From Somniosus microcephalus (lineage: Eukaryota), in NCBI GenBank assembly GCA_052327205.1, contig CM126203.1, forward strand, positions 36,766,001-36,830,000: 64,000 nt of DNA, in the 5' to 3' direction. A model generated the notes under the pieces. It did no database searches. It was not told where the DNA came from and saw only the letters and a list, made by a program, of their open reading frames with translations. Below, piece after piece: positions 5,800 through 58,567 of the stretch. How positions within the stretch are numbered: position 1 is the stretch's first letter; every line of letters begins with the position of its first letter. Position numbers and translations under genes: made by a program.

Positions 5800-8700
5800 A
5801 CCAATACAAACTGGACGGTTTGCAACTGGGCGAGACTGGAACCAATGTCCTAGGGGGAGTGTTTGCTAGTGCTGTTGGGGAGGGCTTAAACTAAAATGGC
5901 AGGGGGTTGGGAACCTGTGCAGGGAGACAGATAAAGGGAAGCAAGGATAGAAACAAAAGACAGGAAGGAGAAAAGCAAAAGTGGAAGACAGAGAAATCAA
6001 GGGTGTAAATCAAACAGGGCCACAGTACATAATAATTCTAAAAGGACTGAGAGTGTTAAAAAATCAAGCCTGAAGGCTTTGTGTCTTAATGCGAGGAGAA
6101 TTCGTAATAAGGTGGATGAATTAGCTGCGCAAATAGATGTAAACGGATATGATATAATTGGGATTATGGAGACATGGCTCCAGGGTGAACAAGACTGGGA
6201 ATTCAACATCCAGGGGTATTCAATATTCAGGAAGGGCAGGAAAAAAGGAAAATGAGGTGGGGTAGCATTGCTGGTTAAAGAGGAGATTAACACAATAGTA
6301 AGGAAGGATATTAACTCTGATGCTGTGGAATCTGTATGGGCAGAGCTGAGAAATACCAAGGGGCAGAAAACGTTAGTGGGAATTGTATACAGACTCCCAA
6401 ACAGTAATGCTGAGGTTGGAGATGGCATTAAACAGGAAATTAGAGATGCGTGCAATAAGGGCACAGCAATTGTCATGGGTGACTTTAATCTACATATAGA
6501 TTGGGCTAACCAAATTGGTAACAATACTGTGGAGGAGGAATTCCTAGAGTGTATACGGGATGGTTTCCTGGACCAATATGTCGAGGAACCAACTAGAGAT
6601 CAGTTCATCTTAGACTGGGTATTATGTAATGAGAAAGGATTAATTAGCAATCTTGTTGTGCGAGGCCCCTTGGGGAGGAGCGATCATAATATGATAGAAT
6701 TCTTCATTAAAATGGAGAGTGAAGTAGTTGACTCAGAGACTAGGGTCCTGAATTTAAATAAAGGAAACTACGATGGTATGAGGCGTGAGTTGGCTAGGAT
6801 GGTTTGGGGAACATTATTTAAAGGGTTGATGGTGGATAGGCAATGGCAAACATTTAAAGATCGAATGGATGAACTACAGAATGTGTTCATCCCTGTTTGA
6901 CACAAAAATAAAACAAAAAAGATGAATCAACCATGGCTAACAAGGGAAATTAGGGATAGCATAAGATCCAAGGAGAGGACATATAAATTGGCCAGAAAAA
7001 GCAGCAAACCTGAGGATTGGGAGCAGTTTAGGAATCAGCAAAGGAGAACAAAGGGATTAATTATAAGGGGGGAAATAGATTATGAGAGTAAGCTTGCAAG
7101 GAACATAAAAACTGATTGTAAAAGCTTCTATAGATATGTGAAGAGAAAAAGATTGGTGAAGTCAAGCATAGGCCCCTTGCAGTCAGAATCAGGGGAATTT
7201 ATAATGGGGAACAAAGAAATGGCAGGCCAATTAAATACATACTTTGGTTCTGTTTTCACAAAGGAGGACACAATTAACCTCCCAGAGATGTCGGGAAAAA
7301 TAGGGTCTAATGAGGGAGGAATTGAAAGAAATCAGTATTTGTAGAGAAATAGTGTTATTGAAATTGATGGGGTTGAAGGCCAATAAATTCCCAGGCCCTG
7401 ATAATCTACATCCTAGGGTATTTAAGGAAGTGGCCCTAGAAATAATAGATGCAATGCTGGTCATCTTCCAAAATTCTATAGACTCTGGAACAGTTCCCAT
7501 GGATTGGAGGATAGCTAATGTAACCCCACTATTTAAAAAAGGTGCTAGAAAGAAAACAGGGAATTATACACCAGTAAGTCTGACATCGATAGTGGGGAAA
7601 ATGCTGGAGTCCATTATAAAAGATGTAACAGCAGAGCACTTGGAAAACAGTGACAGGATCAGACAAAGTCAACATGGATTTACAAAAGGTAAATCATGCT
7701 TGACTAATCTACTGGAATTTTTTGAGGATGTAACTGGTAGAATAGATAAGGGAGAACCAGTGGAAGTGGTGTATTTGGACTTTCAGAAGGCTTTTGATAA
7801 GGTCCTGCATAAGAGATTAGCATGCAAAGTTAAAGCACATGGGATTGGGGGTAAGGTACTGTCTTGGATAGAGAACTGGTTGGCAGAAAGGAAGCAAAGA
7901 GTTGGAATAAACGGGTCTTTTTCTGAGTGGCAGGCAGTGACTAGTGGGGTACCGCAGGGATCAGTGCTAGAACCCCAGCTATTCACAATATATATTAATG
8001 ATCTAGACGAGGGAACTAAATGTAATATCTCCAAGTTTGCAGTTGAAACATAGCTGGGTGGGCGTGTGTGCTGTGAGGAGGATGCAGAGAAACTCCAGTA
8101 TGATTTGGACAGGTTGGGTGATTGGGCAGATACATGGCAAATGCAGTATAATGTGGATAAATGCGAGGTTATCCACTTTGGTGGCAAAAACAGGAAGACA
8201 GATTATTATCTGAAAGCCAATAGATTGGGAAAAGGGGAAGTGCAACGAGACCTGTGTGTCCTTGTGCACCAGTCGCTGAAGGTAAGCATGCAGGTGCAGC
8301 AGGCGGTTAAGAAGGCAAATGGTGTGTTGGCGTTCATAGCGAGAGGATTCGAGTACAGGAGCAAGGATGTCTTGCTGCAGTTGTACAGGGCCTTGGTGAG
8401 ACCACACCTTGAGTATTGTGTGCAGTTTTGGTCACCTTATCTGAGGAAGGATGTTCTTGCCATGGAGAGAGGGCAGCGAAGATTCACCAGACTGATACCT
8501 AGGATTGCAGGAATGACGTATGAGGAGAGATTGGGTCTATTAGGCTTATATTCGCTAGAGTTTAGAAGAATGAGAGGGGATCTCACTGAAACTTATAAAA
8601 TTCTAACAGGACTAGACAGACTAGATGCAGGAAGGATGTTCCCGATGGCGGGGGAGTCCAGAACCAGGGGTCACAGTCTAAGGATAAGGGGTAAGCCATT

Positions 8701-8968
8701 TAGGACTAAGATGAGGAGAAATTTCTTCACCCAGAGAGTGGTGAACCTATGGAATTCTCTACCACACAAGGCAGTTGAGGCCAATTAATTAAATATATTC
8801 AAGAAGGAGTTATATATGTTTTTTAAGGCTAAAGGGATCAAGGGATATAGGGAGAAAGCAGGGACAGGGTACTGAATTTGGATGATCAGCCATGATCTCA
8901 TTAAATGGCGGAACAGGCTCGAGGGGCCGAATGGCCTACTCCTGCTCCTATCTTCTATGTTTCTATGT
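5800..8968 (+). mobile_element. CR1 LINE (family A), 5'-truncated within ORF1; complete but disrupted ORF2 (APE endonuclease + RT)
   Basis: ORF1 esterase C-terminus DGLQL..GTNVLGGVFASAVGEGLN* ends at about 5894. APE motifs LNARRI, ETWL, GDFN and SDH. RT motifs YLDFQKAFD and GVPQGSVL; the catalytic motif has decayed to FAVET*. Stops near 6253, 6898 and 8051, frameshift near 7310. (TTCTATGT)n tail. Confidence 0.95.
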
Positions 8969-14173: not shown

Positions 14174-14939
14174 AGTGGAGAAATGCATAAAGACACAGCT
14201 TATATAGTCAGAGAATCATGTCAGATGTTTACAGGTAACCTTTCCAACTGCCATTTATCACACCTCGGCAGAGAGATAATCACAGCAGTCAAAGGTGTGA
14301 ATGGTGTCCAAACAGGTCAGGCAGGGAAACATTACATCAAAGAACAATGAGGTGGGGTCACAAGGGGTCAAATATTGCAGATGCTGGGGTCTGTATGAAA
14401 AACAAAAAAACAGACAAAAAACATTTTTTTTGGCTGGAAATCACAGCAGGTCCGGCCGCACCTGTGTAGAGAGAACAAGCCAATGTCGACTCGAGTCTGG
14501 ATGACCCTGCATCAGGTGGGGTTACATGTAGCGTGACATGAACCCAAGATCTCGGTTAAGGCCGTCCTCATGGGTGCGGAACTTGGCTATCAGTTTCTGC
14601 TCGACGAGTTTGCGTTGTCGTGTGTCTCGAAGGCCACCTTGGAGAATGCTTACCCGAAGATCGGAGGCTGAATGTCCTTGACTGCTGAAGTGTTCCCCGA
14701 CTGGGAGGGAACACTCCTGCCTGGTGATTGCTGCGCGGTGTCCATTCATCCGTTGTCGCAGTGTCTGCATGGTCTCGCCGATGTACCATGCTCCGGGGCA
14801 TCATTTCCTGCAACGTATGAGGTAGACAACGTTGGCCGAGTCACATGAGTATGTACCATGTACCTGGTGGGTGGTGTCCTCACGTGTGATGATGGTATCT
14901 GTGTTGATGATCTGGCATGTCTTGCAGAGGTTGCTGTGG

Positions 14940-16848
14940 ATGCATCAACGCCAGATTCATCAGCCGCACTCACAAGACAGTCCAGAATGTCACCCGAGCA
15001 CAACGCAACGCCATCCACGCTCTCCAGACCAACCGCAACATCGTCATCAAACCAGCAGACAAAGGAGGTGCCATCGTCATACAGAACAGAACGGACTATT
15101 GCAAAGAAGTATACCGACAACTGGGCAACCAGGAACACTACAGACAGTTACCCGCAGATCCGACCAAAGAACACACCCGCCAACTCAACAGACTGATCAA
15201 AACCTTCGATCCAGACCTTCAAAGCATCCTACATGCTCTCATCCCACGTACTCCCCGCGTGGGAGACTTCTACTGCCTCCCAAAGATACACAAAGCCAAC
15301 ACACCTGGACGTCCTATCGCATCAGGCAACGGAACCCTGTGTGAGAACCTCTCTGGATATGTCGAGGGCATCCTGAAACCCATCGTACAGGGAACCCCCA
15401 GCTTCTGTCGCGACACTACAGACTTCTTACAGAAGCTCAGCACCCACGGACCAGTTGAACCAGGAACACTCCTCGCCACGATGGACGTCTCGGCACTCTA
15501 CACCAGTATCCCCCACGATGACGGCATCGCTGCGACAGCCTCAGTACTCAACACCAACAACAGCCAATCTCCAGACGCCATCCTACAACTCATCCGCTTC
15601 ATCCTTGACCACAATGTCTTCACCTTCGACAACCAGTTCTTTACCCAAACACACGGAACAGCCATGGGGACCAAATTCGCACCCCAATACGCAAACATCT
15701 TCATGCACAAGTTCGAGCAAGACATCTTCGCTGCACAGGATCTCCAACCAATGCTATACACCAGATACATCGACGACATTTTCTTCCTATGGACCCACGG
15801 CGAAAAATCACTGAAAAGACTACACGATAACATCAACAAGTTCCATCCCACCATCAAACTCACCATGGACTACTCCTCAGAATCAGTCTCATTCCTGGAC
15901 ACACGAATCTCCATCAAAGACGGACACCTCAGCACTTCACTCTACCGCAAGCCCACGGACAACCTCACGATGCTTCACTTCTCCAGCTTCCACCCTAACC
16001 ACGTTAAAGAAGCCATCCCCTATGGACAAGCCCTGCGAATACACAGGATCTGCTCAGACGAGGAGGAACGCGATGGACACCTACAGACACTGAAAGACGC
16101 CCTTGTAAGAACGGGATATGACGCTCGACCTGTCGATCGACAGTTCCGACGGGCCACAGCGAAAAATCGCATAGACCTCCTCAGAAGACAAACACGGGAC
16201 ACAACCAACAGAGTACCCTTCGTCGTCCAGTACTTCCCCGGAGCGGAGAAACTACGCCATGTTCTTCGCAGCCTTCAACATGTCATCGATGACGACGAAC
16301 ACCTCGCGAAGGCCATCCCCACGCCTCCACTACTCACTTTCAAACAGCCGCCTAACCTCAAACAGACCATCGTTCGCAGCAAATTACCCAGCTTTCAGGA
16401 GAACAGCGACCACGACACCACACAACCCTGCCACAGCAACCTCTGCAAGACATGCCAGATCATCAACACAGATACCATCATCACACGTGAGGACACCACC
16501 CACCAGGTACATGGTACATACTCATGTGACTCGGCCAACGTTGTCTACCTCATACGTTGCAGGAAATGATGCCCCGGAGCATGGTACATCAGCGAGGCCA
16601 TGCAGACACTGCGACAACGGATGAATGGACACCGCGCAACAATCACCAGGCAGGAGTGTTCCCTCCCAGTCGGGGAACACTTCAGCAGTCAAGGACATTC
16701 AGCCTCCGATCTTCGGGTAAGCATTCTCCAAGGTGGCCTTCGAGACACACGACAACGCAAAATCGTCGAGCAGAAACTGATAGCCAAGTTCCGCACCCAT
16801 GAGGACGGCCTTAACCGAGATCTTGGGTTCATGTCACGCTACATGTAA
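14940..16848 (+). pseudogene. Penelope reverse transcriptase + GIY-YIG endonuclease, 5'-truncated, premature TGA at 16567-16569
   Basis: Motifs IKPADKGG, PKIHK, GRPI, DVSALYT, GTAMG, RYIDD and FLD, then C..C Zn motif and VVYLIRC..*...WYISE...R...H...E...GLN. Confidence 0.92.
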
Positions 16849-17233: not shown

Positions 17234-19653
17234 TTTCAAATAAAGCTGTTGGACTATAACCTGGTGTCGTGTGACTTCTTACATTTTTAAATGTGGTTAG
17301 GGTTTCTGCCTCTTCCACCCTTTCAGGCAGTGAGTTCCAGTGTCTCACCTCCTGACTCCCCAAATCCTTTCTACCAGTTGCAAGGCGCAAGGAAGGAGAG
17401 TGATGGAATACTCTCCACTTGCTTGGATGAGTGCAGCTCCAACAACACTCAAGAAGCTCGACACCATCCAGGACAAAGCAGCCCACTTGATTGGCACCCC
17501 CGCTACCACCTTAAAAATCCACTCCCTCCACCACTGGCGTACCGTGGCTGCAGTGTGTACCATCTACAAGATGCACTGCAGCAACTCGCCAAGGCTTCTT
17601 TGGCAGTACCTCCCAAACCCGCGACCCCTTCCATCTAGAAGGACAAGGGTAACAGACGCATGGGAACACCACCACCTCCAAGTTCCCCTCCAAGTCACAC
17701 ATCATCGTGACTTAGAAGTATATTGGCGATCCTTCATCGTCGCTGGGTCAAAATCCTGGAACTCCCTACCTAACAGCACTGTGGGAGTACCTTCACCACA
17801 CGGACTGCAGCGGTTCAAGAAGATAGCTCACCACCACCTTCTCAAGGGCAATTGGGGATGAGCAATAAATGTGGGCCTTGCCAGCGACGCCCACATCCCA
17901 TAAAAATGAATTTAAAAAACCTTTAGTGCTGGCAAGTGGCAGGAGAGCACCTTGCTGCACTTCAGGGTGGCCATGAGGACCTGTATCTGCACTGGCAGTC
18001 CTCCTCAAAAGGGCATCCATGAAGCTCTGGTCTCTCTGCTCAGCAGCTGCCTATCACTCCTCCCGAGATGTCAGTCTATTCTGAACAGTCACCATGTTTT
18101 CCTGACTCTGGTGACTTATTTCCTCCATGGCCGTAGCCATCCTTTCCGCTAAGGTAGCCATCCTTTCCACAGAGGTTGCCATCCTATGTATGGTGGTGCG
18201 TTCATGCGCCACTGCCTCCACCGTGGCAGTGCTGATGTTAGAGATGAACTCCTCCATTCTCTTCACATTCGCACTAACCCTGGAGGCAAACCCTTCCAGA
18301 GACACCTACATTTGTTCCTGTCTTTCACAAACTGCTCTTTTTCTGGATGGCCCCAGAGGCACAGCGTCTGCATGCAGCTCAGCAGAGCTACGAAAGTCCT
18401 GCGACCTGTCGCTGTCTCCACCATCTGCTGATGCTCACTTGTGCACTGTGATAGACCAGGTGGCAACACATCTCTAACTCGCAATGGCCCCACCGAGGTG
18501 TGCATTGCTGCGCTGGTGCTGGGTGCGCTGAGTCCTGGTGACGCTGCTTCCTCCAAGGCTTCAGGTTCCTCTGAGATGTCCAGGTCTTCATCCTGAATCA
18601 TGGGGAGGGGGGCACTTGATGGTCCTGTGGGAGAGTAAAGGCTTGAATTAGAAATCTGATATTGATTTAGCAGACACATTCTTTTGAGCAGATGATATAA
18701 AGCAATGCTCTATGAACATCATATTGCATTGCTTTCTGAGAGGGATGAAACTCTATTATGTCACCAGCTTCCTCTAATGTGCCCGTCTCTCCATCGCCCA
18801 CTTCAAGGTCCTTGCCACCTCCAATAATCTTGTTTGCAGCCTCCTCAGCACTGGTCAATGTTGCAAGGGTAGGTGTTCCTCCTCCAGTCATTACTCTCTC
18901 CCTCTTATTGTGGGCTATCTTTTCCTGCAAGGATAGACACAAGCGGTGTTTCAGCCACAGTGATGGAGTGAGTTTGCTTAATCCCTACCATAGATGACGA
19001 AGATGGGGTAAGATGCCAAGAGGAAGGTAGCTCCCTGTGCATTGTTAGTTGTTGTCACTGCATGGCAGTGAGTGTGAGTCTAAAGGGTGCATAGGCAGGA
19101 TGCTGAAGTGATTCAGTGCAGAGACAGAGATGCATAGGAAAGGGTGAAAGGGAAGTAAGAGTAAGGTGTGATGTGAAGGAGGAGGCTTCCAAAGCAGAGT
19201 GCAGGTGATGAGAAGAGAAGTGAAGCAGAGTAAAGGCAAGTGAGATGGGATACTCACTTCTGATGTTCTCACAAGACCATTAAACCTTTTGCGGCACTGG
19301 ATCCATGAGTGTGCATAAATGCACTTTGCGCACACCTCCTGAGCAATGCACAGCCAAGCTACCTTGGTCTGCTGAGGAGGCTTCCTCCAGCCATTAGGAG
19401 GGAAGAGAATCTCCCTGCGCCCTCTGACAGAATCGGCAAGAACTTGGAGGGACTCATCATTAAACCGAGGTGCTGCCTTGCCTCTGGAAGAAGTCATAGC
19501 TGTGAAAAGAAGTGCAGGAAACCACAATGGAAAGACTCAAGCTGGAAGGCAGCTTTAAAAGCAGCTGCTATTGCGACATCATCAGAGGCGGCCAGCCGAC
19601 CCGATCCCACTCATTGGACCGGCCAGCGCGCCTCCATGAAATTAACAAGGTAC

Positions 19654-22600
19654 TGTTGAGATACCGTGGCAAACGTGGGAGTCAAGACCAGAGTTGATGG
19701 AACACAACTGCTTTAATTTACATCATGGCAAAACAAGTGCTTAAAAAGCCCGCGCAACCACTTAAATACTCCCCAGACAGGAAGTGCTCCCGGCAGCCTG
19801 TCCCTGCGGGAAACAAGTTGCCGGAGGAAAGGGCCCACGGCTGGGGGCAGCTGCTGCCGGCAGTGCACCTGCGTAAACTGTCCGTGCCACCGTGAGCGGA
19901 TTATGTCCAATGGTGGCGTGTCGCCACAGAGCTCCCCCCAGAATCCGCTTAGGAGGAGTGGACGAGTCGTGACGGTGGTCTAATGGTTCTGCTGGAGCAG
20001 CTCTGAGTGGCCGCCGGTCTAGTTGGTGGGGCCGGGCGGTTCGCCGCCGGCTGTGCTAGCTTGCTGGCGGGACGGCCTCTAGTTGGAGGTCGGGCCACGG
20101 GGACCTGTTCCCCTGGTTCTGTGTGTGCTGGTTTGAGTCGGTCGATGGAGACCGTTTCGACCCTGTCGCCGAGTCGCAGCTTGAAGGCCTTGTCCCCGGT
20201 TTGTAGTACCTCGTACGGTCCGTCGTATGGGGGTCGCAGGGGTCCGCGGTGTGCGTCGTGTCGCACGAAGACGAAGCGTGCCTGCTGTAAGTTTGGCGGA
20301 ACGTGAGGTGCGAGTTCGCCGTGTCGGTTGACCGGAAGTGGGGCGAACTGTTGAGCGGAAGAGAAAGAGTTGAGCCGCTGCTGTTCGGCCGACCAAGGCG
20401 TGGTAGCCTCCGGGAGGAATTCGCCTGGTACGCGCAGCGGTTGTCCGTAGACTAACTCCGCTGCTGAGGACTGGAGGTCTTCCTTGACCGTGGTGCGTAG
20501 GCCTAGTAGCACCCACGGTAGGCGGTCAGTCCAGGTACTGTCCTGCAGGCTGGCGCGGAGTGAGGCCTTGAGTGACCTATGGAAGCGTTCACACAGCCCG
20601 TTGGCCTGCGGGTGGTACGCCGTGGTTCGGTGGAGCGTCACCCCGAGGTTGCGTGCTGTGGCCGTCCAGAGTTCGGAGGTGAACTGGGTGCCTCTGTCGG
20701 AGGTTATATCGGCCGGTACGCCGAACCTCGCGACCCAGGTGTTAACGAACACCCTGGCGATGTCAGCTGTGGTGGTGGAGGTCAACGGCACTGCCTCAGG
20801 CCAGCGTGTGTAGCGGTCGACCATCGTGAGAGGATAAGTTTGGCCTTGCGATGGCGGCAGAGGACCGACGATGTCGACGTGTACGTGGTCGAAGCGGCGG
20901 CTGGGTACCTCGAAGTCTCCCAGGGGTGCTTTTGTGTGTAGCTGTACCTTAGCCCGTTGGCAGGCGAGGCAGGAGTTGGCCCAAGTCCGAACATCTTTGT
21001 TGAGGCCGCGCCAGACGAAGCGCTGGGAGAGGAGTTTAACAGATGCGCGGGAACCCGGATGGGAGAGCCTGTGGAGCGCGTCAAAGATGCGGCGGCGCCA
21101 GGTTGCAGGGACGACCGGCCTGGGTTGGCCGAGTGAGACGCCGCAAGTGACTGCCGTGGCTTCGGGCCCGTGCGCGACCTTGGCTAGACGTAGCCCTGGC
21201 AGGCTGGTAGCCGCCGAGAGGAGGTCTGGGTCCGTGAGCTGGGCCGCTGCTAGTTGCGCGTAGTCGACCGCTAGGTGATTCGCGCAGATGGCGGGATGGG
21301 AAAGGCAGTCGGCGACAACGTTGTCTCTACCGGAGATGTGCTGGATGTCCGTGGTAAACTCGGACACGGCCGTGAGCTGGCGTTGCTGCCTAGCGGACCA
21401 AGGGTCGGTGTTCTTGGCCATCGCGTATGTGAGCGGCTTGTGGTCCACGTATGCGGTAAAGGAGCGGCCCTCCAGGAGGAACCTGAAATGGCGGACCGAC
21501 AGGTGGAGCGCGAGGAGCTCGCGGTCGAAAGTAGAGTATTTGACCTCCGGGGGGAGCAGTTGGCGGCTGTAGAAGGCAAGTGGCTGCCACGCGCCATTGA
21601 CCCACTGCTCGAACACGGCTCCGACCACATGGTCGGAGGCGTCGGTGGTGAGCGCGACCCGGGCATCGGCCCTCGGGTGCGTGAGCAGGGTGGCGTCAGC
21701 GAGCGCGTTTTTGGTGGCATCGAAGGCGGCTGACGCGTCAGCGGTCCAGACTACGGCCATCTTGCCGGATTTACCTCGAAGGGAATCGTATAGGGGCTTC
21801 ATGAGGGCTGCAGCTCTGGGGATGAACCTGTTGTAAAAGTTTACCATCCCGAGGAACTCCTGGAGGCCCTTGATGGTTTTAGGGTGGGGGAATTGCTGGA
21901 CGGCCAGCACCTTGTTGGGCAGGGGGTGGCCCCAGCAGGGGTGATGTGGTGGCCGAGAAAATCGATCTCGGCTAGGCCGAATTGGTACTTCGCCGGGCTG
22001 AGGATAGGCCCATGTTGGGCTAGGCGCCCGAACAAGATGCGAAGGTGTTCGAGGTGTTCCTGTTTGGAGGAGCTGGCCACAAGAATGTCGTCTAGATAGA
22101 TGAATAGAAAGTTCAGGTCCCGGAGGACTGAGTCCATAAGGCGCTGGAAAGCCTGGGCTGCATTCTTGAGGCCAAAGGGCATCCTCAGGAACTCGAACAG
22201 GCCGAATGGGGTGATGACAGCCGTTTTGGGGATGTCCGCGGGGTGTACGGGGACTTGGTGGTAACCGCGCACCAGGTCGACCTTGGAGAAGACAGTTCGT
22301 CCAGCCAGTCGGGCCGAGAAGTCCTGGATGTGCGGCACCGGGTATCAGTCGGGGGTGGTGGCGTCATTGAGGCGGCGGTAGTCCCCGCAGGGGCGCCAGC
22401 CTCCGCCGGGCTTGGGGGCGATGTGGAGGGGTGAGGCCCAAGGGCTGCTGGAGCGGCAGATGATGCCGAGTTGCTCCATGGTGGTGAACTCGGCCCGCGC
22501 GATTTCCAGCTTGGCCGGGTCAAGTCTGCGGGCGTGGGCAGAGACCGGGGGGCCGGTGGTGGGGATATAGTGCTCCACACCGTGTTTGGCGGCTTTGGCC

Positions 22601-24036
22601 GAAAAGGTCGGGTTAGTGAGGGCGGGAAGCTCGGCTAGTAGTGCCGAGTAGTCGTCCATGGCTCTGGCGAGGCAGTAGGTCGTCAGGCCGACCGAACGGG
22701 CCGGGGTGACTGCGCCAGGGATGGGGGCCATAGTGTTGATGTCAATGAGGCGGTGCCTCGGAATGTCGACAAGGAGGCCGTGAGCACGTAGGAAGTCGGC
22801 GCCGATGAGTGGGCAGAGGACCTTGGCTGTGAGGAACTCCCAGCGGTAGCGGCGGCTTGCGAGGTCGAGCGTGACCATGCGGGTGCCGTATGTGCGGATG
22901 TCAGAGCCATTGGCTGCAGCCAGCGTGACACCCCGTACGCCGCGTTGGATTTCGAGGGCGGAGGCGGGGGTGATGCTGTGCTGGGCTCCTGTGTCGCACA
23001 GGAATCGGCGGTTGGTGCTGTCGTCGATGACGTACAGTAGGGGCCCCTTTTGCCCCGCGGCCATCGTGGGGGCCGGTGCGGGGGAGGGTTTGAAAGTGCA
23101 CGGTGGCGTGCAACGTTGGGCCCTAGTGCCAAACGGGTGTGGTAGTAGCAATGACCCGGAGTGGAAGGGCGGTCGGGCCTAGTGAGCCGGGGGGACCGCG
23201 TGGTCGTTGCTGTGAGGTCGGGCGCGACGTCGCGGGCGGTCTGCGCGGAGAGCAGCCGGTCGGCCTTTTCAGCTATCTCATTCAGGTCCATGGAGCCAGA
23301 CTCCACAATGAGCGGGCGGATGCTAGCGGGGAGCTGCCGAATGAAAAGCGTACGAAAGAGGGCGCCGGGTTTTTTGTCGTCCGAGAGGGACAGCATGTGG
23401 GAAAGCAGGTCTGATGGTGAAGCGTCACCAAGGCCTGGGAGGTCGAGGAGTTGGCAGTTGCGCTGGTAGGAGGATGCCTGAAATTTTTTAAGGAGCGCGG
23501 CCTTCAGATGTTCGTACTTGCCTTCCTCTGGTGGATCCTGCAGCGCTGCCCAAACCTTAGGGACTGTGGCGCAGGTGAGAGAGGCGATGAGGTAGTCGTA
23601 CTTCGTGGTGTCGACTGTAATGCTTCTCAGCCGGAATCTGGACTCGGCTTGAACGAACCAGGCCTCGGCCAGGTTCTCCCAAAAGTCCGGTAGTTTAACC
23701 GTGACTGCGTTTGTATCTGCCATGCTAGCTTAGGATTCGTCCTGAGCGTCGGGGTCACCAGTGTTGAGATACCGCGGCAAACGTGGGAGTCAAGACCAGA
23801 GTTGATGGAACACAACTGCTTTAATTTACATCATGGCAAAACTAGTGCTTAAAAAGCCCGCACAACCACTTAAATACTCCCCAGACAGGAAGTGCTCCCG
23901 GCAGCCTGTCCCTGCGGGAAACAAGTTGCCAGAGGAAAGGGCCCACGGCTGGGGGCGGCTGCTGCCGGCAATGCGCCTGCGTAAACTGTCCGTGCCGCCG
24001 TGAGCGGATTATGTCCAATGGTGGCGTGTCGCCACA
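19654..24036 (-). mobile_element. Full-length Ty3/Gypsy LTR retrotransposon, CsRn1 clade
   Basis: 275-bp LTRs at 19654-19928 and 23762-24036 (8 differences), TG..CA ends, TSD GTAC. PBS TGGTGACCCCGACG (23760-23747) is complementary to tRNA-Trp. PPT at about 19929-19942. Gag has a CHCC motif. Confidence 0.95.
19949..23723 (-). pseudogene. CsRn1-type gag-pol (Gag, PR, RT, RNase H, IN), disrupted
   Basis: Gag starts MADTNAVTVKLPDFW and has CYYHTR/FGTRAQRCTPPC across a frameshift near 23130. Protease DTGA. Stop at 22345-22347. RT YLDD. Frameshift near 21915. RNase H TDAS. Integrase H..H..C..C, DDE core and GPY motif. Confidence 0.93.
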
Positions 24037-28532: not shown

Positions 28533-28888
28533 TAATAATAATAATTCAACTTTATTGTCATTGCACAAGTACATGAACAACGAAATGTGATCTTGCAAGC
28601 TCCCATGACTGGGAGAAGCAAAGCCGCTGCGTCGGTGCGCGCCGCCATTCCATTTCCACCATTCCTCCTGTCCGACAATCTTCAGCCCACCGCCCGGGCC
28701 TGCTTACCAGCCGCTCCTCCTTCCGTGACCTTCTCACCAACCGCCCCTCCTCGGGGCTCCTTCCGTGACCTTCTGCACCTGGTCTTCCCTGATGGTCACC
28801 CACTCCAGGTACTAACCAGGCCTGGCTCTGCTTAACTTCCAAGCCTTGCCAGTGACCCTGTCCCTAGTCCCAGGAACACATGGAGCCA
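28533..28888 (-). mobile_element. 5S rRNA-derived SINE (SINE3-like) with Rex1/Babar-type tail
   Basis: 28843-28769 on the minus strand aligns to the 3' 75 nt of vertebrate 5S rRNA (about 80% by hand, against a recalled sequence), covering box A, IE and box C. The tail is CAATGACAATAAAGTTGAA(TTA)n. The 5' boundary is uncertain. Confidence 0.7.
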
Positions 28889-30509: not shown

Positions 30510-33500
30510 ATGCCAAAGAGTGGCAGTGTCACTGCGTTCGACAATGAAGTCGAAGAGTGGGCGACATATGTGGAACGCATTGAGGTGTACTGCAAGGCGA
30601 ATGAAGTGCCAGATGCCAGGAAAGCACTGGTTTTGTTGAATTCCATGGGTGCAAAAACGTATGGCTTACTGCAAAACCTAATAACCCCAGAGAAGCCAGT
30701 GGATAAGGAATTCGAATGCATAGTGGAAATCCTACAGGACCACTTAAACCCCACACCGCTGCTGATAGCAGAAAGATTTAAGTTCCACAAAAGGAACCAG
30801 CATAAAGATGAAAGTAATGCTGAGTAATTAACGGAACTGCGCAAGCTATCGAAATACTGCCAGTTTGGAATGGGACTAGCAGATACGTTAAGGGACAAGT
30901 TTGTGTGTGGGCTTCAAAATGAAGGAACCCAGAAACGGCTTCTATCAGAAAAGGATCTTACGCTGGACAAGGCTTTCAGCATGGCAGTATCACACGAAGC
31001 AGCCGCACGGGGCGCTGCAGAGATACAACGGAGACCGCAAGAATATGGCACCAATGAAATGTCATATGGAGCAGGGAAGTGTTATCGCTGCGGCAGAACA
31101 ACACACGACCAGAAGGATTGTTGGTTCAAGGACCAAGTGTGCAGACAGTGTGGAAAAGCAGGACACATAGCAAGAGTCTGCAGGTCAGGGAAGAAAACCA
31201 GCAGCAAGAAATCTCCACAGGAGAAGTACAAAAAGGTACATAAGGTGATGGACAGTAGATCAGATGAACAGAAAAGTGATACAGACTCCGGAAGCAAGGA
31301 GCTGGGTTGTCTGAAACTACATAAGGTAATCAAAATGGAGGATCACCAGACTATCTGGGTCATGCTCAAGATAGACGGAGTCCAAGTGAAAATGGAATTG
31401 GACACAGGATCAGCCCTAACAGTCATAAACCGAAGGGACTACAAGCGGCTATTCTCACATATACCCTTGAAAGCTACAGAGATTGTCTTGAAGACGTACA
31501 CGGGGCAAAAATCTACCCCAAAGGAAAAATAAGGGTGAACGTGATATACAAAGGCCAGGAAATAACAAAAATGGACCTATATGTATTGCCAGATGGAGGA
31601 CCACCACTACTAGGATGTGAATGGATCCAGAAGATACAATTAGATTGGCATTCCATACAGGCACTGAAGGTTGAGGCCAAAAAGGATGACGATGTCACAC
31701 CTGGACGACTGTCAAAAATGCTAACTGACGCACAAGAAGTGTTCCAGGAGGGACTTGGAACACTAAAAGGCATAACAGCGACGATTGAAATAGAGGAAAA
31801 TGCAAGCCCAAAGTTTTTTAAGGCCAGACCGGTGCCTTATGCGATCCGACCAGCTGTCGAAGCAGAGCTGGAAGGTTTGGAACGTTCAGGAGTACTGTCC
31901 AAAGTGGACTGGAGCGAGTGGGCTACACCCATCGTTCCTGTAATGAAGGGGTCATTGAGTAATACGCCTGGGGAACCAAAGAAGGTCCGCATCTGTGGGG
32001 ATTTTAAGGTGACATTGAACCCAGTCCTTCACACGGTACAATATCCGCTTCCACGGATTGAAGATATTTTCGCCTCGCTATCTGGAGGTAAACGCTTCAC
32101 TAAGATTGATCTGGCCCAGGCGTACCTGCAAATGGAGGTAGAAGTAGCCTCGAAACATTACCTCATGATCAACACTCATAAAGGTCTCTAGCAATACAAC
32201 CGGCTGGTGTTTAGGGTAGCATCGGTTCCGGCTATTTGGCAAAGGGCAATGGATCAAGTCCTGCAAGGGATTTCAGGGACCCAGTGTTATTTGGACGACA
32301 TCCTGGTCATGGGCGAAAATGACAGTGATCAACTCGCCAACCTGGAGAAGGTGCTCACTAGATTAAAGGAATATGGGCTGTGAGCTAATCGCCACAAGTG
32401 CGAGTTTTTCCAGAAGCAGATCTCGTATTGTGGCCACGTTATTGATGAAGAGGAGTTACATAAGTCCCCTGAAAAGATTGAGGCAGTAGTCAAGGCTCCA
32501 GCACTGGAAAATGTGTCACAACTGAGGTCGTTCCTTGGGCTGGTGAACTACTACCATAAGTTCTTACCAAATTTGTCTACAGTATTACACGCACTGAACA
32601 CCCTACTGCAAACGGGTGTAGCATGGAAGTGAAATGACGAATGTAAACGAGCTTTCCAGAAGTGCAAAGAATTGATCACATCAAAAGAGGTGTTGGCCCA
32701 TTTCAACCCAGCACTACCAATTCGGTTGGCGTGTGATGCATCACCCTATGGTATTGGAGCGGTGCTGTCGCACAAATTCCCAGAGGGGTTGGAGAGGCCA
32801 GTAGCCTTTGCGCTCGGTCACTAACCTCAGCCGAGCGCAACTATGCCCAGATTGACAGGGAGGCCCTCAGCCAATATGGGGAGTAAAAAAATTCAACCAC
32901 TATCTGCATGGGCAGAAGTTCACCTTGCTGACTGACCACCAACCACTTGTCTCCATCTTTAATCCAAAGAAGGGCGTTCCGGTGATGACTGCACAACGGC
33001 TACAAAGATGGTCCCTTTTTCTAGGGGCGAACCAATATGAAATAGAGTATAAGGGCACGAAACAGCATGGAAACGCTGATGGGCTATCACGCCTGCCACT
33101 GCCTACTGTGGAGGAAGCACCAGCAGTGGACCCTATCGAAATATTTTATTCATCGATAATTGAACGCTTGCCAGTAACTAACGCGGATATAGAGAAGGAG
33201 ACCCGAAATGATCCGACACTGCCTCGGGTATATGATTTGACGGTGAAGGGATGGCCAACACATGGCGACTCACTGTTGCCAGCATTCTCATCCAGAAGAG
33301 AACAGCTGTCAGTATGCCAGGGGACAGTGAGGTGTGGATCCCGAGTGGTAATTCCACCCAAGTTAAGGGAGAGAGTGCTCAATTAGCTTCACGAAGGCCA
33401 TCTGGGAGGGGTGAAAATGAAAAGCCTTGCTAGGGCTTATGTGTGGTGGCCGGGGATTGATCAACAAATCGAGGACCTAACAAAGAGCTGCTCAGGATGC

Positions 33501-34455
33501 CAGAAGGTCCAAAATGCACCACCACATGCCCCCCTGACACCCATGGGAGTGGCCCTCCTCTCCATGGCAACGGGTGCATATTGATTTTGCTGGTCCATTC
33601 ATGGACTCAATGTTCTTAATAGCAGTGGATGCGCACTCGAAATGGCCTGAGGTGATCAAAATGTCCTCCATCACTACAGAGAAAACGATTGCAGTCCTAC
33701 GGACCATATTTGCCAGGAACAGCTTGCCGGAGCAGATTTGCTCTGATAACGGACCACAGTTTGTGTCCGAAGAGTTTCGGAAATTTATGAGAAGGAATGG
33801 GGTAAGGCATTACACATCCACCCCGTATCATCCAGCCACAAATGGGTTGGCTGAGAGGTTCGTACAAACCTTTAAAAAGGCAATAAGGGCCATGTGCGAT
33901 GATGACATTCCACTACAGCATAAGGTGGACAATTTCCTGTTAGCCTACAGGAATGTGACATATGCAGTTACCAACCAGACCCCGGCCATGGTGTTCTTTA
34001 ACCGAAGGTTGAGATCTCGTCTGGATTTGCTCGGACCAAATGTGCGAAGAAATGTTGAGGATAAGCAATTCCAGCACATCAATGAGAAGCCGACAAGGAG
34101 CTTCAATGTAGGACAACCAGTCTTGGCCCGCGACTACCGAACAGAGAAATGGCAACCCAGAACGATATGCACACGGCAGGGGCCACTAATGTACACAGTG
34201 GATGTCGGGGAGAACATTGTGAGATGCCACGTCGACCAGATCCTAGCGTCACAGGAACGAGTCAACCCCATGTCTCGCGTACCTGGGGATGAACCCGACA
34301 TACCGGTAGCATCTACCCCAGAAACAGTAGCAGCGGAAACTGATGAACTAACCGACAAAAGGGGGCCAGAATCGCCTCCGCACCAAGAACAAGACACTCA
34401 GGAAAGGCGCTATCCAGAAAGGATCAGGAAGCCGCCCCAAAGACTGAATCTATAA
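30510..34455 (+). pseudogene. Mag-type gag-pol (two CCHC knuckles, PR, RT, RNase H, IN), multiply disrupted
   Basis: Knuckles CYRCGRTTHDQKDC and CRQCGKAGHIARVC. Protease LDTGS. RT RICGDFK and YLDD (about 32288). RNase H CDAS. Integrase HIDFAGP, SDNGPQF and ERFVQT. Stops include 30825, 32189, 32381 and 33384, plus frameshifts. Confidence 0.92.
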
Positions 34456-34836: not shown

Positions 34837-36815
34837 ATGGCAGAGATGCCTGCAGCAGCTGCTGCCAGTGGCAGAACCCGAGCTGCCGCCAAATTTGACG
34901 AAACGTCACTGCAGACATTAGTGGATGGGGTTAGGGCCCACAGGGAGGTCCTCTTCCCTAGGTCAGGGAGGAACAGTCCTCCCAATGAGACCAAGGCTGC
35001 GTGAATGGAGATGGCAGCAGAGGTGAACTCTCAGGCAGTCACCAGAAGAACATGGCTGCAGTGCAGGAAGCGATTCCATGGCCTCCACCGTACAGGAAAA
35101 GTAAGTATGAAGTTTCCATCACCCTCAACCTGATCCCCATTGCCTTTCCCCAGCAACACTCAGCTTCAGCAATCTCTTCCTCCACATCCCACTTCACAGT
35201 CACATCCATGCACCCTTACCCATTCCGTATCTCTCTATGCTCACATTCACATAACTATTCCACCATGCAGCCCTCACACTGTCTCTCACTCTGATGCTTG
35301 GAACACAACTGACAACACACAGGGAGGGCCCTTGGTCTTGCAGCCTTACACCATCTTTGTCTCCCTCTAAGTATCTATGCTATGCAATCTTTACACTCAC
35401 TCCTGCCCTCTCACTCAAACTCCACTTGTCTCCCTCATTGCAGGAAAAGAGAGCTCACAATAGGAGAGAGCGAGCCAGGACTGGAGGAGGCCCACCCTCA
35501 ATAGCCCACCTGACCCCCGGGAGGAAGGAGTGCTGGAGCTTGTCGGGGCTGACGTGGCTGTGGAAGCTGGGGAAGGAGAGACAGGAGCAAGCCCGCAAGC
35601 TGGTGACAGAATAGTTTTCCATCTCTCTCATTGACATAGCATGAGTCACTGTTATGATTCTGAAGCTACATCATTTGGACTTATGAGTATCTGCAAAATC
35701 CAATGTGGATGTAGCCTTGGCATCACATCTCTAACTCTTTCCTTTACTCCCCCACAGGACCATCCAGAGCCCCCATCCCCACTGTCGAGGAGGAAGAGGC
35801 TGTGCAGCCAGACTCCTCAGAGTAAGTGCACCCAGCACCAGCGCAGACACCCACACCTCGGGGGGACCTTCGGGACATAGAGTAGTGTTATCATCTGGTG
35901 TTTCACAGCTCACAAGTGAGCATCAGCAGATTGTGGAGACAGGGACAGCAGTGGAGAGTCCTCGTCGGAGGGCGCAGGCCGCTGCCAGCTCAGCTCAGCT
36001 GCATGTCGACCCTATGCCTCTGGGTCCATCCACAAGAGAAGAGGTAATGGAGTCTCTGGCAGGTTTTGTCTCCAGGGTCACTGCGAGTGTGGAGCGAATG
36101 GAAGAGTCCATAGCGAACATGAGCAGAGCCTTAGTGGAGTCACTGGCGCATGAACGCATCACCACGGAAAGGATGGCTACCTCCGTGGTAAGGCTGGCTA
36201 CCTCCGTGGTAAGGCTGGCTACCGCCGAGGAGAGGTGGGCTGTGGCCGAGGAGAGGAGTGCTACGGCTGAGGAGAGGAGGGCTACGGCCATGGAGGAGCT
36301 TAGTCGCTAGGGTATGGAAAACATGGTGAGTGCTCAGAATATAATGACATCTCTTGAGGAGCGATGGGCATCTATTGAGCACCGAAACCAGACCTTCATG
36401 GAAGTCCATCTGAGCAGGACTTCCAGTGCAGATACGGGTCCCCATGGCCCCCCTGATGTGCATCAAGGTGCTCTCCAGCCACTTGCAGGCGCTGAGGGGG
36501 AGCTGACCCATGAGAGGGAGGTTTCTGGCAGACCTCAAGGAAGTGGGGGCTCCTCTCCACGCGCTCACACTTCCATGCCACTTCAGAGCCCTCGGTCAGA
36601 GCCCCGCCGGAGTCCACACCCAAGTGAGATAGGCGTCTCAACCCTTGCACAGCCGCAGGAGCAGCAGACTGCTGGCGAGCCCTCACAGGCTCGCCACCCC
36701 AAAGGTGTCGAGACAGGAGCAGCAGGAAAGTGAGCAAGGGGCCTCCACATCTGCTGAAGCCACAGGGGTACCACTACGTAGGAGCACGCATAAGGGAAAA
36801 ATAAAGCACCACTAA
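34837..36815 (+). pseudogene. Harbinger Myb/SANT-like protein gene, 3 exons (34837-35100; 35444-35602; 35758-36815)
   Basis: Reads KFDETSLQTLVDGV...A*MEMA...TWLQCRKRFHGL|EKRAHNRRERARTGGG. GTAAGT donor at 35101, CAG acceptors at 35441-35443 and 35755-35757. W-to-stop at 35002. Exon 2 is 1 nt shorter than the 160-nt exon of element #1 (frameshift). Confidence 0.85.
36170..36295 (+). repeat. 6 x 21-bp coding tandem repeat (heptads)
   Basis: AGG.TGGCTAC... units encode RMATSVV RLATSVV RLATAEE RWAVAEE RSATAEE RRATAME. Confidence 0.9.
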
Positions 36816-37068
36816 TCACAAGGGTAGTCACTTGGGTGAAAAGTTTTGTATATAGTTTTAATGCCATCTGTATCTTGTACATAAAAAATCTGATGGCATC
36901 TGCCGCAGTTGTGGCGTCTGTCATTTGGCGAATGGGGATTTCACATTGAGGCCGTAGGATTACTTGCAGTTGTCAGCAAGCTGGTCAAATAGGTAGAAAT
37001 GCGCAGGGATGGGCCATTGTCCATGGTCAGGTAAGAAGCAGCGAGGCTACAGTGTTTGATGTACTAGG

Positions 37069-38347
37069 CTAAGCAAATCTGGCCAGGATGAGTGCGTTCC
37101 TTGCATTCCGGCCAGCAATGTTCTCACATAATGGTGCCGCTGTTTGATGGGCCTCTGCAGGGTGCTAATTTTCAGCCTCCTCTTCCTCCTCCTCCTCCTC
37201 AGCATCATCCTCATCCGAGGCGGCTCTGTGAGGAGCCTCTTGGTCCTGCGGAATCTGCAAGCCACAACGCTGTGCCATGTTGTGAAGCACACAGCAAACC
37301 ACGACGATTTTGGAGACCCTGGCTGCTGAGTACTGTAGGGCTCCACCTGATCTATCGAGGCATCTGAAGCACATCCTTCAGCAATCCGATGGTTTGCTCG
37401 ATAATGCATCTGGTCGAAATCTGGCTGGTGTTGTAGCGCTCCTCATCTTCGTTGGCTGGTCTCCTCAACGGCGTCATTAGCCAAGTCCGCAGGGGATATC
37501 CCTTGTCTTCAAGTAGCAATCCCTGAAGTTCGTCTGGCGGACTGAATAGCGGAGGCACAGTAGACTGGTGCAGTATGAGGGAGTCATGGCAGCTGCCAGG
37601 GTACTTGGCACAAACATGCAAAATCTCCTTCTAGTGGTCACACACCAGCTGAACGTTAAGGGAGTGGAAGCCCTTACGGTTGACAAAAATACCTGGATTG
37701 CGATGGGGTGCTCTAAGGGCCACATGTGTGCAGTCAATGACGCCCTGCACCCTTGGAAAGTCTGCCAGCTGAGCTAATCCAAGCGCTCGCGCCCTCACAC
37801 TTGCGCGATCCCTGGTGAAATGGATGTGATTGTGCGCGAGGGCAAAGAGGGCATCGGTTACCTGCATGATGCAAGTGTGTGCGGCTGCCTGGGAGATGCC
37901 GCTGATGTCTGCTGCTGATCCCTGGAAGGAGCCTGAGGCAAAAAAGTTGAGTGCGGTGGTGACTTTGATGGCCACTGGTAAGGAGTGCCGACCTGGTGCT
38001 CTGGGCTCCAGGCCTTGCTGTAGCATTGCGCAGATATCAGTCACTACCTCTCGCGAAAGTCGGAGCCGCCTTTGGCACTGCTGCTCAGTCATGTTGAGGT
38101 AGCTCACCCTGTGTGTGTAGACCCTGCTTGGGGGGTATCTCCTGCGCCGACGGCCTTCCATGCGCTGGCCCCTTCTGGCCTGTGCTGCCTCAGGTGGGTG
38201 AGCCGCAGCCTGCCGCTCCTGCTGCTGCTGTTGCTGGTGCTGCTGTTGTTGCTGGATCTGCTGCAGCCTCCTCTGCTGTTGGAGATCCTCTAATGCCAAG
38301 AAGGGAAGGAAAAAAAGGCCTCCCATGCTTCTGGCAGATGCCTCCAT
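37069..38347 (-). pseudogene. Harbinger DDE transposase (HARBI1-like, DDE_Tnp_4), disrupted
   Basis: Motifs [57 protein letters not shown] and CCVLHN. Stop at 37631, frameshift near 37375. N-terminal polyQ. Confidence 0.93.
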
Positions 38348-39069
38348 TGAGGAAGCGCTGAGTGAGGGTGGTGAGAGGGGCTTCCCAGGAGCTCACACTG
38401 GAGAAGTGTGTGAGGCTCCAACCTTCCACAGCTGTGCCTAAGCCTTGAACAAGTTGCCCCAAGCCTGAAACAACAAGGTCCTGCAATCTACAATTGCTGT
38501 CTGATTAAATCTCTTCTTTCCTGATTGACCTGCAGCTGAAAGTAAGCAAGCCGACATTGTTCACGCCAAGTTTCATCAGCGGTGTTCCCACCAGGCGTGT
38601 TTTACGTGGGGAAAGGCTGAAAATTGCAAGGGCCCCTCAAAATGGCATTATAGATGCCAATTACTGGTGATTAGGATCCCGACGACCAGTCCCGCCTGCT
38701 GCGGGCGGGACTGATTCGGGTCGCATTGAAACGCCGGGGCGAAAGTCGGACGGGACGGGACGGGGAATCAGGTGGGGGGGGGGCGGTCACGACCCCCTAT
38801 TTTTGTGATTTCCCCCCCACACGCCTGAAACCCCACCTGACGGCTCCAGGAAAATCGAGGCCCTAATTTACGATGTATCTCCCTCAATGAACCAAGATAC
38901 TTCTTTCAAAATATATAGGTAATTATATGATGTGTAATTTGTGTGTATTGATGGATGCACAGGGAAAGTGTGACACTTACCACACTTGTGCGATTTTAAT
39001 CTATCACTAGAAAATCTCCCACAGTGCCCCTCATGGTGAGTCAAAGAATATGCTATTTTATAACAGCTA

Positions 39070-50975: not shown

Positions 50976-52436
50976 TCGATAGACTCTGGCACAGTTGCCA
51001 TGGATTGGAGGGTAACTAATGTAACTCCATTATTTAAAAAAGGTGGTAGAGAGAAAACGGGGAATTATAGACCGGTAAGCCTGACATCGGTAGTGGGGAA
51101 AATGCTCGAGTCCATTATAAAAGATAGAATAGCAGAGCACTTGGAAAACAGTGACAACATGGATTTGCAAAAGGTAAATTGTGCTTGACTAATCTACTGG
51201 AATTTTTTGAGGATGTAACTGGTAGAATAGATAAGGGAGAACCAGTGGATGTGGTGTATTTGGACTTTCAGAAGGCTTTCGATAAGGTCACGCATAAGAG
51301 ATTAGCGTGTAAAGTTAAAGCACATGGGATTGGGGGTAAGGTACTGACTTGGATAGAGAACTGGTTGGCAGTCAGGAAGCAAAGAGCTGGAATAAATGGG
51401 TCTTTTTTCGAGTGGCAGGCAGTGACTAGTGGGGTACTGCAGGGATCGGTGCTAGGACCCCAGCTATTCACAATTAACGATCTAGACGAGGGAACTAAAT
51501 GTAATATCTCCAAGTTTGCAAATGACACAAAGCTGGGTGGGCATGTGTGCTGTGAGGAGGATGCCGAGAAACTCATGTATGATTTGGACAGGTTGGGTGA
51601 TTGGGCAGATGCATGTATAATGTTGATAAATGCGAGGTATCCACTTTGGTGGCAAAAACAGGAAGACAGATTATTATCTGAACGGCAATAGATTGGGAGA
51701 AGGGGAAGTGCAACCAGACCTGGGTGTCCTTGTGCACCAGTTGCTGAAGGTAAGCATGCAGGTGCAGCAGGTGGTTAAGAAGGCAAAAGTTATGTTGGCC
51801 TTCATAGCGAGAGGATTCGAGTACAGGAGCAAGGATGACTTGCTGCAGTTCTACAGGGCCTTGTTAAGACTGCACCTTGAGTATTGTGTGCAGTTTTGGT
51901 CACCTCATCTGAGGAAGGATGTTCTTGCCATGGAGGGAGTGCAGCGAAGATTCACCAGACTGATACCTGGGATGGCAGGAATGACGTATGAGGAGAGATT
52001 GGGTCGATTGGGCTTATATTCGCTGGAGTTCAGAAGAATGAGAGGGGATCTCATTGAAACTTATAAAATTCTAACAGGACAAGACAGACTAGATGCAGGT
52101 AGGATGTTCTCGATGGCGGGGGAGTCCAGAACCAGGGGTCACAGTCTAAGGATAAGGGGTAAGCCATTTAGGACAGAGATGAGGAGGAATTTCTTCACCC
52201 AGAGAGTGGTGAACCTGTGAATTCTCTAACACAAAAGGCAGTTGAGGCCAATTCATTAAATATATTCAAGAAGGAGTTAGATATATTTCTTAATGCTAAA
52301 GGGATCAAGGGATATGGGGAGAAAGCAGGGACAGGGTACTGAATTTGGATGATCAGCCATGATCTCATTAAATGGCGGAGCAGGCTCGAGGGGCCGAATG
52401 GCCTACTCCTGCTCCTATCTTCTATGTTTCTATGTT
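50976..52436 (+). mobile_element. CR1 LINE family A, 5'-truncated RT + 3' UTR
   Basis: Colinear with and highly similar to 7475-8968. FANDTK motif and TTCTATGT tail. Confidence 0.95.
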
Positions 52437-57489: not shown

Positions 57490-58567
57490 CAAAACTGACT
57501 CGGAGACAGGAAGCAGAGGGTAATGGTTGATGGGTATTTTTGCGACTGAAAGGTTGTTTCCAGTGGGGTTGTGCAGGGCTCAGTACTAGGTCCCTTGCTT
57601 TTTGTGGTATATATCAACGTTCTTGACTTGAATATAAGGGGTATGATTAAGAAGTTTTCAGATGATACTAAAACCGGCTATGTGATTGATACTGAAGAAG
57701 GAAGCTGTAGACTGCAGGAAGATATCAATAAATTGGTCAGGTGGGCAGAACAGTGGCAAATGAAATTCAATCCGGAGAAGTGTGCATTTGGGGAGGGCTA
57801 ACAAGGAAAGGGAATACACATTAAATGGTAGGACACTGAGTAGTGTGGAGGAACAAAAAGACTTTGGAGTGCATGTCCACAGGTAGCAGGCCAAGTGGAT
57901 AAGGTGGTTAAGAAGGCATACGGAATGCTTGCCTTTATTAGCCGTGGCATAGAATACAAGAGCAGGGGGGTTATGCTTCAACTGTATAAAACACTAGTTA
58001 GGCCTCAGCTAGAGTACTGCGTGCAGTTCTGGTCACCACATTACAGGAAAGATGTGATTGCACTAGAGAGGGTACAGAGGAGATTTACAAGGATGTTGCC
58101 GGGAGTAGAGAATCTTAGCTATGAGGAAAGACTGGATAGGCTGGGTCTGTCTTCCTTGGAAAATAGGAGGCTGAGGGGAGACCTTATTGAGGTGTATAAA
58201 GTTATGAGGGGTATAGATAAAGTGGATAATAAGGACCTATTTCCTTTAGCAGAAGGGTCAAAAACCAGGGGGCACAGATTTAAAGTAATTGGTGGAAGGT
58301 TTAGAGGGGATTTGAGGGGAAATGTCTTCACCCAGATGGTTGTGGGGGTCTGGAACTCACTGCCTGAAAGGGTGGTAGATGCAGGAACCCTAACCACATT
58401 AAAAAGTACTTGGATGTGCACTTGGGATGTTGTAACCTGCAGGGCTACAGACCAAGAGCTGGGAAGTGGGATTAGGCTGGATACCTCTTTGTTGGCCGGC
58501 GTGGACACGATGGGCCGAAATGGCCTCCTTCCATGCTGTAACTTTCTTTGATTCTATGAATCTATGA
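57490..58567 (+). mobile_element. CR1 LINE family C, 5'-truncated
   Basis: QGSVLGPLLF, KFSDDTK, LEYCVQFWSP and RRLRGDLIEVYK. Tail TTCTATGAATCTATGA. Confidence 0.93.

Follow-up and report, generated by a model that had tools for sequence, protein, structure and literature searches.

The locus raises the question of whether a 5S rRNA-like segment lying beside a Rex1/Babar-like end belongs to a mobile family and, if so, how its parts were joined and how it is copied. Sequence analysis of the window, a stretch of 64,000 nt of Somniosus microcephalus DNA, identified the element as one copy of an interspersed SINE family, at 28878-28533 on the minus strand. Re-inspection found all features given in a preliminary description of this DNA at the positions named there. 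The element itself had been taken to begin at 28888; its actual start is 28878, the window copy lacking the first 4 nt of the family. It is very probably a 5S SINE whose 3' third is made up of the first 39-60 and the last 80-118 nt of a Rex1-type LINE, likely transcribed by Pol III from the 5S promoter and likely copied by Rex1 through the shared tail. Within the literature covered, two-ended designs of this sort are reported only from other retrotransposon groups.

Layout, abundance and age of the family

The established order of parts is a 5S promoter, a 119-nt spacer, a Rex1 5' end, a Rex1 3' end and (TTA)n (Table 1). Compared with the majority sequence of its short subfamily, the window copy has three substitutions and one inserted base, and its leader measures 35 nt as against 39 nt in full copies. 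The middle had been described as a unique CpG-rich body. It is CpG-rich, with 65% GC and a CpG observed/expected ratio of 0.95 over 28608-28768 (48% and 0.49 for the window), but it is not unique throughout, as 28649-28611 is the 5' end of a LINE. The 18-bp direct repeat reported there (28717-28734 and 28757-28774) is exact and belongs to a 40-nt unit present one to three times per SINE copy; the (TTA)n end was likewise read correctly.

Table 1. Parts of the SINE copy and their positions in the window
Feature	Positions	Strand	Basis or remark
One SINE copy, short subfamily	28533..28878	-	without first 4 nt of family
Non-5S leader, family nt 5-39	28844..28878	-	fold prediction
5S-derived segment, 5S nt 44-117	28769..28843	-	Rfam and alignment to own 5S genes
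Box A	about 28837-28823	-	assumed 5S box position
Intermediate element	28820-28815	-	assumed 5S box position
Box C	about 28807-28789	-	assumed 5S box position
GC-rich spacer, 119 nt, with 40-nt unit holding 18-nt direct repeat	28650..28768	-	
Rex1-type LINE extreme 5' end	28611..28649	-	36/39 nt identical
Rex1-type 3' UTR tail	28547..28610	-	75-82% to LINE
(TTA)4 terminal repeat	28533..28544	-	as in one LINE subfamily

The stretch of the body accounted for by neither 5S nor LINE sequence is 119 nt long and includes a 40-nt duplication. Neither leader nor spacer matched the 5S repeat unit, the window or 0.88 Mb of flanking DNA (best E 0.35), and an Rfam scan of the element gave no ribozyme and no other family of note. 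A comparison with an abundant flanking repeat, which we take to be SacSINE1-like and which stood in for an authentic Deu sequence, showed no similarity (E 3.4 or worse).

A genome search with the element returned 1201 candidates, the 40 that were scored being the query and 39 copies at 98-99% identity on many contigs. Exact markers were found 938 times for the short tail, 2043 for the long tail, 1592 for the 5' end and 1532 for the 5S part, each with 0 matches in the control. On the first 270 Mb of C1 the tail marker also caught 55 of 70 head-marked and 66 of 78 5S-marked copies. Scaled up, this recapture gives ~3,400-3,700 copies, an estimate drawn from one stretch and missing older copies. 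The copies share fixed ends and a fixed layout within unrelated flanks. The earlier reading as a multi-copy SINE family is therefore upheld by thousands of interspersed copies.

Two subfamilies of 349 and 409 nt are about 1% diverged. The short one lacks 9, 44 and 7 nt present in the long one, and its 44-nt deletion spans the junction of 5' piece and tail while a 39-nt core is kept. L137, a duplicate of L136, and 10 loci present twice were excluded before counting. In a set of 139 tail-selected copies, non-CpG positions differ from the subfamily majority by 0.9-1.0%, a value biased low by the exact marker, and 15 copies have no non-CpG change at all. The core is identical in four copies on four contigs. 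CpG sites have changed in 9-10% of cases compared with ~1% at other sites, which suggests germline methylation. The family is thus a young, abundant 5S-headed SINE of a cartilaginous fish.

Most of the 139 tail-selected copies start close to the family 5' end, 83 within nt 1-8 and 108 within nt 1-40. The 31 that start beyond nt 40 are 5'-truncated with intact 3' ends, and none of the 139 continues upstream as an intact LINE 3' UTR. A cluster of 5' truncations near nt 177-179, seen in the first 28 short copies, was gone in the set of 139. Among copies picked by the 5S marker, the leader is present in 29/30 and the Rex1 5' motif in 30/30. Target duplications of at least 6 nt flank 3 of 75 SINE copies, of which one lies within a tandem repeat (~1.5 expected), and 1 of 21 copies of the partner LINE; for the SINE this is not clearly above chance.

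Several long-subfamily copies (L079, L084, L090, L145, L220) have in common a tail deletion of ~19 nt bounded by short direct repeats, which is either recurrent or marks a minor sub-lineage with a minimal tail. At L217-L219 (G000 C6 216.08-216.09 Mb), the SINE occurs three times in identical form and between identical flanks, at a spacing of 5651 nt, a tandem duplication carrying the element. Sequencing runs of three organism labels hold 0.44-0.81 of the element's 27 sampled words, runs with a share <0.2 (organisms D-H) having been set aside; this is only a sign that close relatives also carry the element.

The 5S-derived head

An alignment to Rfam RF00001 had been suggested as a check of the 5S assignment. 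It does recover 5S, over 28886-28767 of the minus strand, at 23.9 bits (E=0.022), which falls short of the gathering score of 38, since the 5' third of the element does not fit 5S. The preliminary description had equated 28843-28769 with the 3' 75 nt of 5S at ~80% identity. Aligned to 5S genes of the same genome, both a sister copy and the subfamily majority agree with nt 44-117 in 62 or 64 of 74 positions (84-86%; E 2e-17 to 5e-20), with a score of 100 compared with 44 for the best of 2000 shuffles. Most copies align gap-free; in the window copy one base is inserted. The ~45 nt upstream are, as had been stated, not 5S-like, since 1781 of 2000 shuffles score equally well against 5S nt 1-43.

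The genome carries 5S rDNA in tandem arrays with a unit of ~2.5 kb and at least two gene variants (L031-L042; G000 C19, C153, C536). The SINE head is nearer to the L042 variant, at 64 of 74 compared with 62 for the other.

We take the control boxes of 5S genes to lie at +50-64 (box A), +67-72 (intermediate element) and +80-97 (box C). In the element these match the genome's own 5S genes at 13-14/15, 6/6 and 13/18 positions, respectively. As far as sequence can indicate, the 5 changes in the 18 positions of box C would count against Pol III transcription from this head. The T-run terminator of 5S is absent, the longest T run being 3, and full copies begin on a G, 4 nt short of +1 by 5S numbering. 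The roles of the three boxes are given in the sections consulted of PMC3123226.

Folding predicts a leader hairpin of 12 bp in full copies, of which 8 bp remain in the window copy (z -2.97; 1/200 shuffles as stable). For the 116-nt head, three hairpins are predicted (z -4.17; 0/200 shuffles). Of 14 helix IV/V pairs, which we assume from the 5S structure, 13 are predicted to form, two of them stronger than in the 5S gene. This pairing hints at selection on the head RNA, with four changed pairs only. The head RNA as modelled could refold into three hairpins, retain the 5S helix IV/V arm and still bind TFIIIA.

The Rex1-type LINE and its two pieces in the SINE

A LINE end with the same tail was first located in the flank of L024. 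For the corresponding LINE there were 3343 search candidates; a tail marker that includes the ATT repeat had 2659 exact occurrences and a 5' marker 324. Complete copies measure 3.1 kb, with a single ORF and no ORF1, and L159 (353-3355, minus strand) has an uninterrupted open frame of 1001 residues. The protein contains RVT_1 (1e-29) and ALKBH8_N (1e-16) domains and gives a weak endonuclease match at 1e-4, below the Pfam cut-off. The best named relatives come from teleosts, at mostly 55-71% identity, and none of the proteins returned bore a Rex1 label. Identities of up to 66-71% to teleost proteins are in line with the ray-teleost transfers discussed in the portion covered of PMC13343379.

Loci L153-L212 fall into subfamilies 90-97% alike with differing terminal repeats. 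The LINE 3' UTR ends in 3-, 4-, 5- or 6-nt units depending on subfamily, and the (TTA)n of the SINE corresponds to the ATT subfamily. In 30/30 loci with the 5' marker, similarity to the reference copy starts at LINE nt 1-5, and the matched LINE sequence is therefore the 5' terminus.

Rex1 elements lack ORF1 and have one ORF with AP endonuclease and reverse transcriptase (passages of PMC13343379 and PMC6274825). The 5' motifs were compared with the portion covered of the PMC13343379 supplement, a CR1-group set without RTE and Vingi that gives 400 letters per consensus. The 10-mer ATGGCGGCGC of the LINE 5' end falls in Rex1-labelled consensuses in 23/23 matches, as does a further 5' motif, GACGCAGCGG, in 6/6. 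The shorter start motif AAGATGGCG also occurs in L2 rows, 5 of the 24 among the matches listed, of 55. In the same material, conservation of the Rex1 5' motif extends over the Rex1 families of numerous fishes. Because the 5' motifs fall in Rex1-labelled rows and Rex1 elements are without ORF1, the LINE is classed as putatively Rex1-type on its structure and motifs. Published Rex1 PCR primers, as given in an excerpt of PMC4635592, do not match the LINE properly at the DNA level; the peptide motifs corresponding to them lie 573 nt apart, compared with a product of ~550 bp, which counts as weak agreement. An older Rex1-type family, 72-76% similar to the young one, is seen at L277, where a SINE copy has apparently inserted.

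The SINE matches this LINE twice, once at its very start and once in the tail, at 75-82% over 80-118 nt. Including the repeat, the tail measures ~80 nt in the window copy and ~118 nt in the long subfamily. This comparison with Rex1 3' ends of the same genome, which had also been suggested, supports the tail as being of the Rex1/Babar type originally proposed, the 3.1-kb LINE sharing both tail and (TTA)n end. Against the whole LINE the SINE body scores 34, compared with 16 for the best of 500 dinucleotide shuffles. The 5' piece of the long subfamily spans ~54-60 nt at 76-85%, with the tail directly after it. Both pieces thus abut directly and keep the order and orientation of the LINE. A T run of 4-5 in the LINE 5' piece is shortened to 3 in the long SINE, as would be expected if Pol III terminators have to be avoided. 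The tail hairpin does not exceed shuffles in stability (z 0.04 to 1.1).

In a search for a closer partner LINE, none of the 139 tail-selected copies proved to be a LINE, and 20 more full-start LINE loci held no better tail. With the best tail match at ~75-82%, the donor may therefore be another Rex1 lineage. At positions where the local LINE departs from the SINE, the skate consensus LeuEri_Rex1-5 has letters in common with it.

At L298 the SINE lies in a LINE copy that has 99.5% identity to another one, and ~60 nt of the target are missing. The locus was considered as a SINE-LINE chimera and rejected in favour of a plain SINE insertion into a LINE copy. The SINE therefore moved after that LINE copy did, and its activity overlaps or follows that of this LINE subfamily.

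Precedents, origin and genomic surroundings

Two-ended SINEs, 5S SINEs and Rex1-tailed SINEs are each already known kinds. RSg-1, the partner of OS-SINE1, SlmI and HpaI, is a Rex1/Babar LINE, and the combination of a 5S head with a Rex1 tail therefore has a precedent in OS-SINE1. In the sections covered of PMC3747384, OS-SINE1 of salmonids likewise has a 5S head and an RSg-1 tail, but it is a DeuSINE with no LINE 5' piece listed, whereas no Deu-like stretch was seen in the window element. The same sections list SINE2-5_NV with a tail common to a Rex1 LINE, and SlmI and HpaI with one common to RSg-1, but these have tRNA heads and no LINE 5' piece is listed for them. Zebrafish SINE3 and AmnSINE1 have the 5S-derived Pol III head in common with the window element but carry a Deu domain and a CR1-type partner (parts of PMC3747384 and PMC7245038). 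In lepidopteran SINE3 and Ajax, conservation of 5S is confined to its promoter part and the sequence upstream has diverged, as here. Replacement of the leader is thus no novelty by itself; hosts and partners differ, Ajax being an LTR element (part of PMC10886601). The supplement of that paper gave no match.

A LINE-derived body with two ends also has parallels. Ped-1, CoeSINE5, SINE-1_Pmo and HaSE3 likewise have a 5S head followed by LINE 5' and 3' pieces, but these come from RTE and the first is not always the very 5' end, whereas the window element draws on a Rex1-type LINE from its terminus (PMC5786205, in part). Like the bipartite LINE-derived SINEs of Kojima 2018, it has LINE 5' and 3' pieces in order on the same strand. 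All cases in the portion covered of that work have donors of the RTE or Vingi clade, whereas the longer 5' motifs here occur only in Rex1-labelled rows, of a set without RTE and Vingi. In the excerpted text of PMC5786205, the only donors given for SINE middles are RTE and Vingi, and two-ended derivatives are attributed to RTE, Ingi, Vingi and R2 alone.

Within the same host group, the shark SINEs HE1, SacSINE1 and CmiSINEs differ in having tRNA heads, V, Deu or CORE bodies and CR1/L2-type partners (parts of PMC3747384 and PMC5499810). The cartilaginous-fish SINEs treated in the passages of PMC5499810 are all tRNA-type. The open literature searched holds no description of the family and lists no 5S SINE from a cartilaginous fish; the suggestion of an undescribed SINE3 family stands to that extent and applies to the literature only. 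That Dfam, Repbase or SINEBase already list the family by a different name is rather unlikely, but the chance is far from negligible. An abundant and young family would be caught by automatic repeat finders; against this stand the open literature searched, in which it is not described, and a 2024 table of rDNA-derived elements without any cartilaginous fish (PMC10946416, in part).

For the origin, the favoured account is that an internally deleted Rex1 gained the spacer and the 5S head by template switching. The short subfamily, including the window copy, would descend from the long one through losses of 9, 44 and 7 nt. Alternatively, the Rex1-like pieces were gained separately: first the tail, then the 5' piece, either through another template switch or out of a different Rex1 lineage. 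In that case a two-ended non-autonomous Rex1 never existed. The difference between 92% over 39 nt in the 5' piece and 75-82% in the tail favours separate gain, as does the conservation of the 5' motif among fish Rex1 families. No free-standing two-ended family was found either: 1 of the 139 tail-selected copies starts near the Rex1 start, and of 12 matches to a pattern for such elements 11 have upstream SINE sequence and 1 does not. However, the pieces abut in LINE order and orientation, the first from the LINE terminus, as an internal deletion would give, and L170 shows that internal deletion does occur in the partner LINE. Separate gain is thus considered unlikely. L170 is a single internally deleted Rex1-type copy in which ~nt 1-361 are joined to the last 60 nt, with other break points.

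In the favoured Pol III pathway, TFIIIA and TFIIIC would bind box A, the intermediate element and box C; transcription would start at the G 45 nt upstream of box A. The RNA would read through the element, because no run of four T is present. The Rex1 endonuclease and reverse transcriptase would then prime on the (TTA)n end and insert a copy, often 5'-truncated and mostly without target duplication.

On a rival reading, the element is a non-autonomous Rex1 under Pol II control, with transcription from the Rex1 5' motif or through read-through and with the 5S piece as passive cargo; this would account for the diverged box C. RNA-seq in two runs of one organism gave 455 and 786 reads on the element and none on the flanks. 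Depth is highest over 28610-28671, as this reading would expect, though loose ends show LINE reads there too. The reads run in both directions without a sharp 5' start, a pattern that fits copies embedded in longer transcripts and is neutral on Pol III. The 83 of 139 copies that start within 8 nt of the point fitting a 5S promoter speak against Pol II, with only 1 of 139 near the Rex1 motif, as does the retention of only the promoter-bearing part of 5S and the absence of T runs. This makes a Pol II origin very improbable. The idea that a 5S pseudogene merely happens to lie next to a Rex1 stub, or that the assembly is at fault, finds a foothold in the Rfam score under the gathering cut-off but is practically untenable, being refuted by thousands of copies in one fixed layout with unrelated flanks and by family reads in two RNA runs.

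More tentatively, it is hypothesised that Rex1 is a further LINE clade yielding two-ended derivatives. Its first 40 nt would be kept for a cis action, by protein binding or 5' joining, making the 349-nt element a natural minimal Rex1 substrate, and the head may be under selection as RNA. Why only few LINE clades make two-ended derivatives or feed SINE bodies is an open question in the part covered of PMC5786205, to which a young Rex1 case adds a clade. The element offers a direct test of the role of a LINE 5' end inside a Pol III transcript, and the family would place cartilaginous fishes among the few known hosts of 5S SINEs. With ~1% divergence, a few thousand copies and mostly no target duplications, its insertions could mark presence or absence among close species. 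The effect of these points is limited to retrotransposon biology.

The window also holds other mobile-element sequence. Broken pieces of a CR1-type LINE ORF2 lie at 6256-8788, 51155-52220 and 57844-58551; the best named relatives of the CR1 protein fragment are from skate and ray (74-79%), then sawfish, chimaera and shark. By eye, a 552-residue open frame at 14911-16569 resembles a Penelope-type reverse transcriptase, and frames at 19045-19536 and 35735-38392 resemble remnants of Harbinger-type Myb/SANT and transposase sequence. Gypsy-like LTR retrotransposon coding regions were recognised by eye from the ORF list at 19949-23729 (minus strand) and 30828-34455 (plus strand), the former with long open frames.
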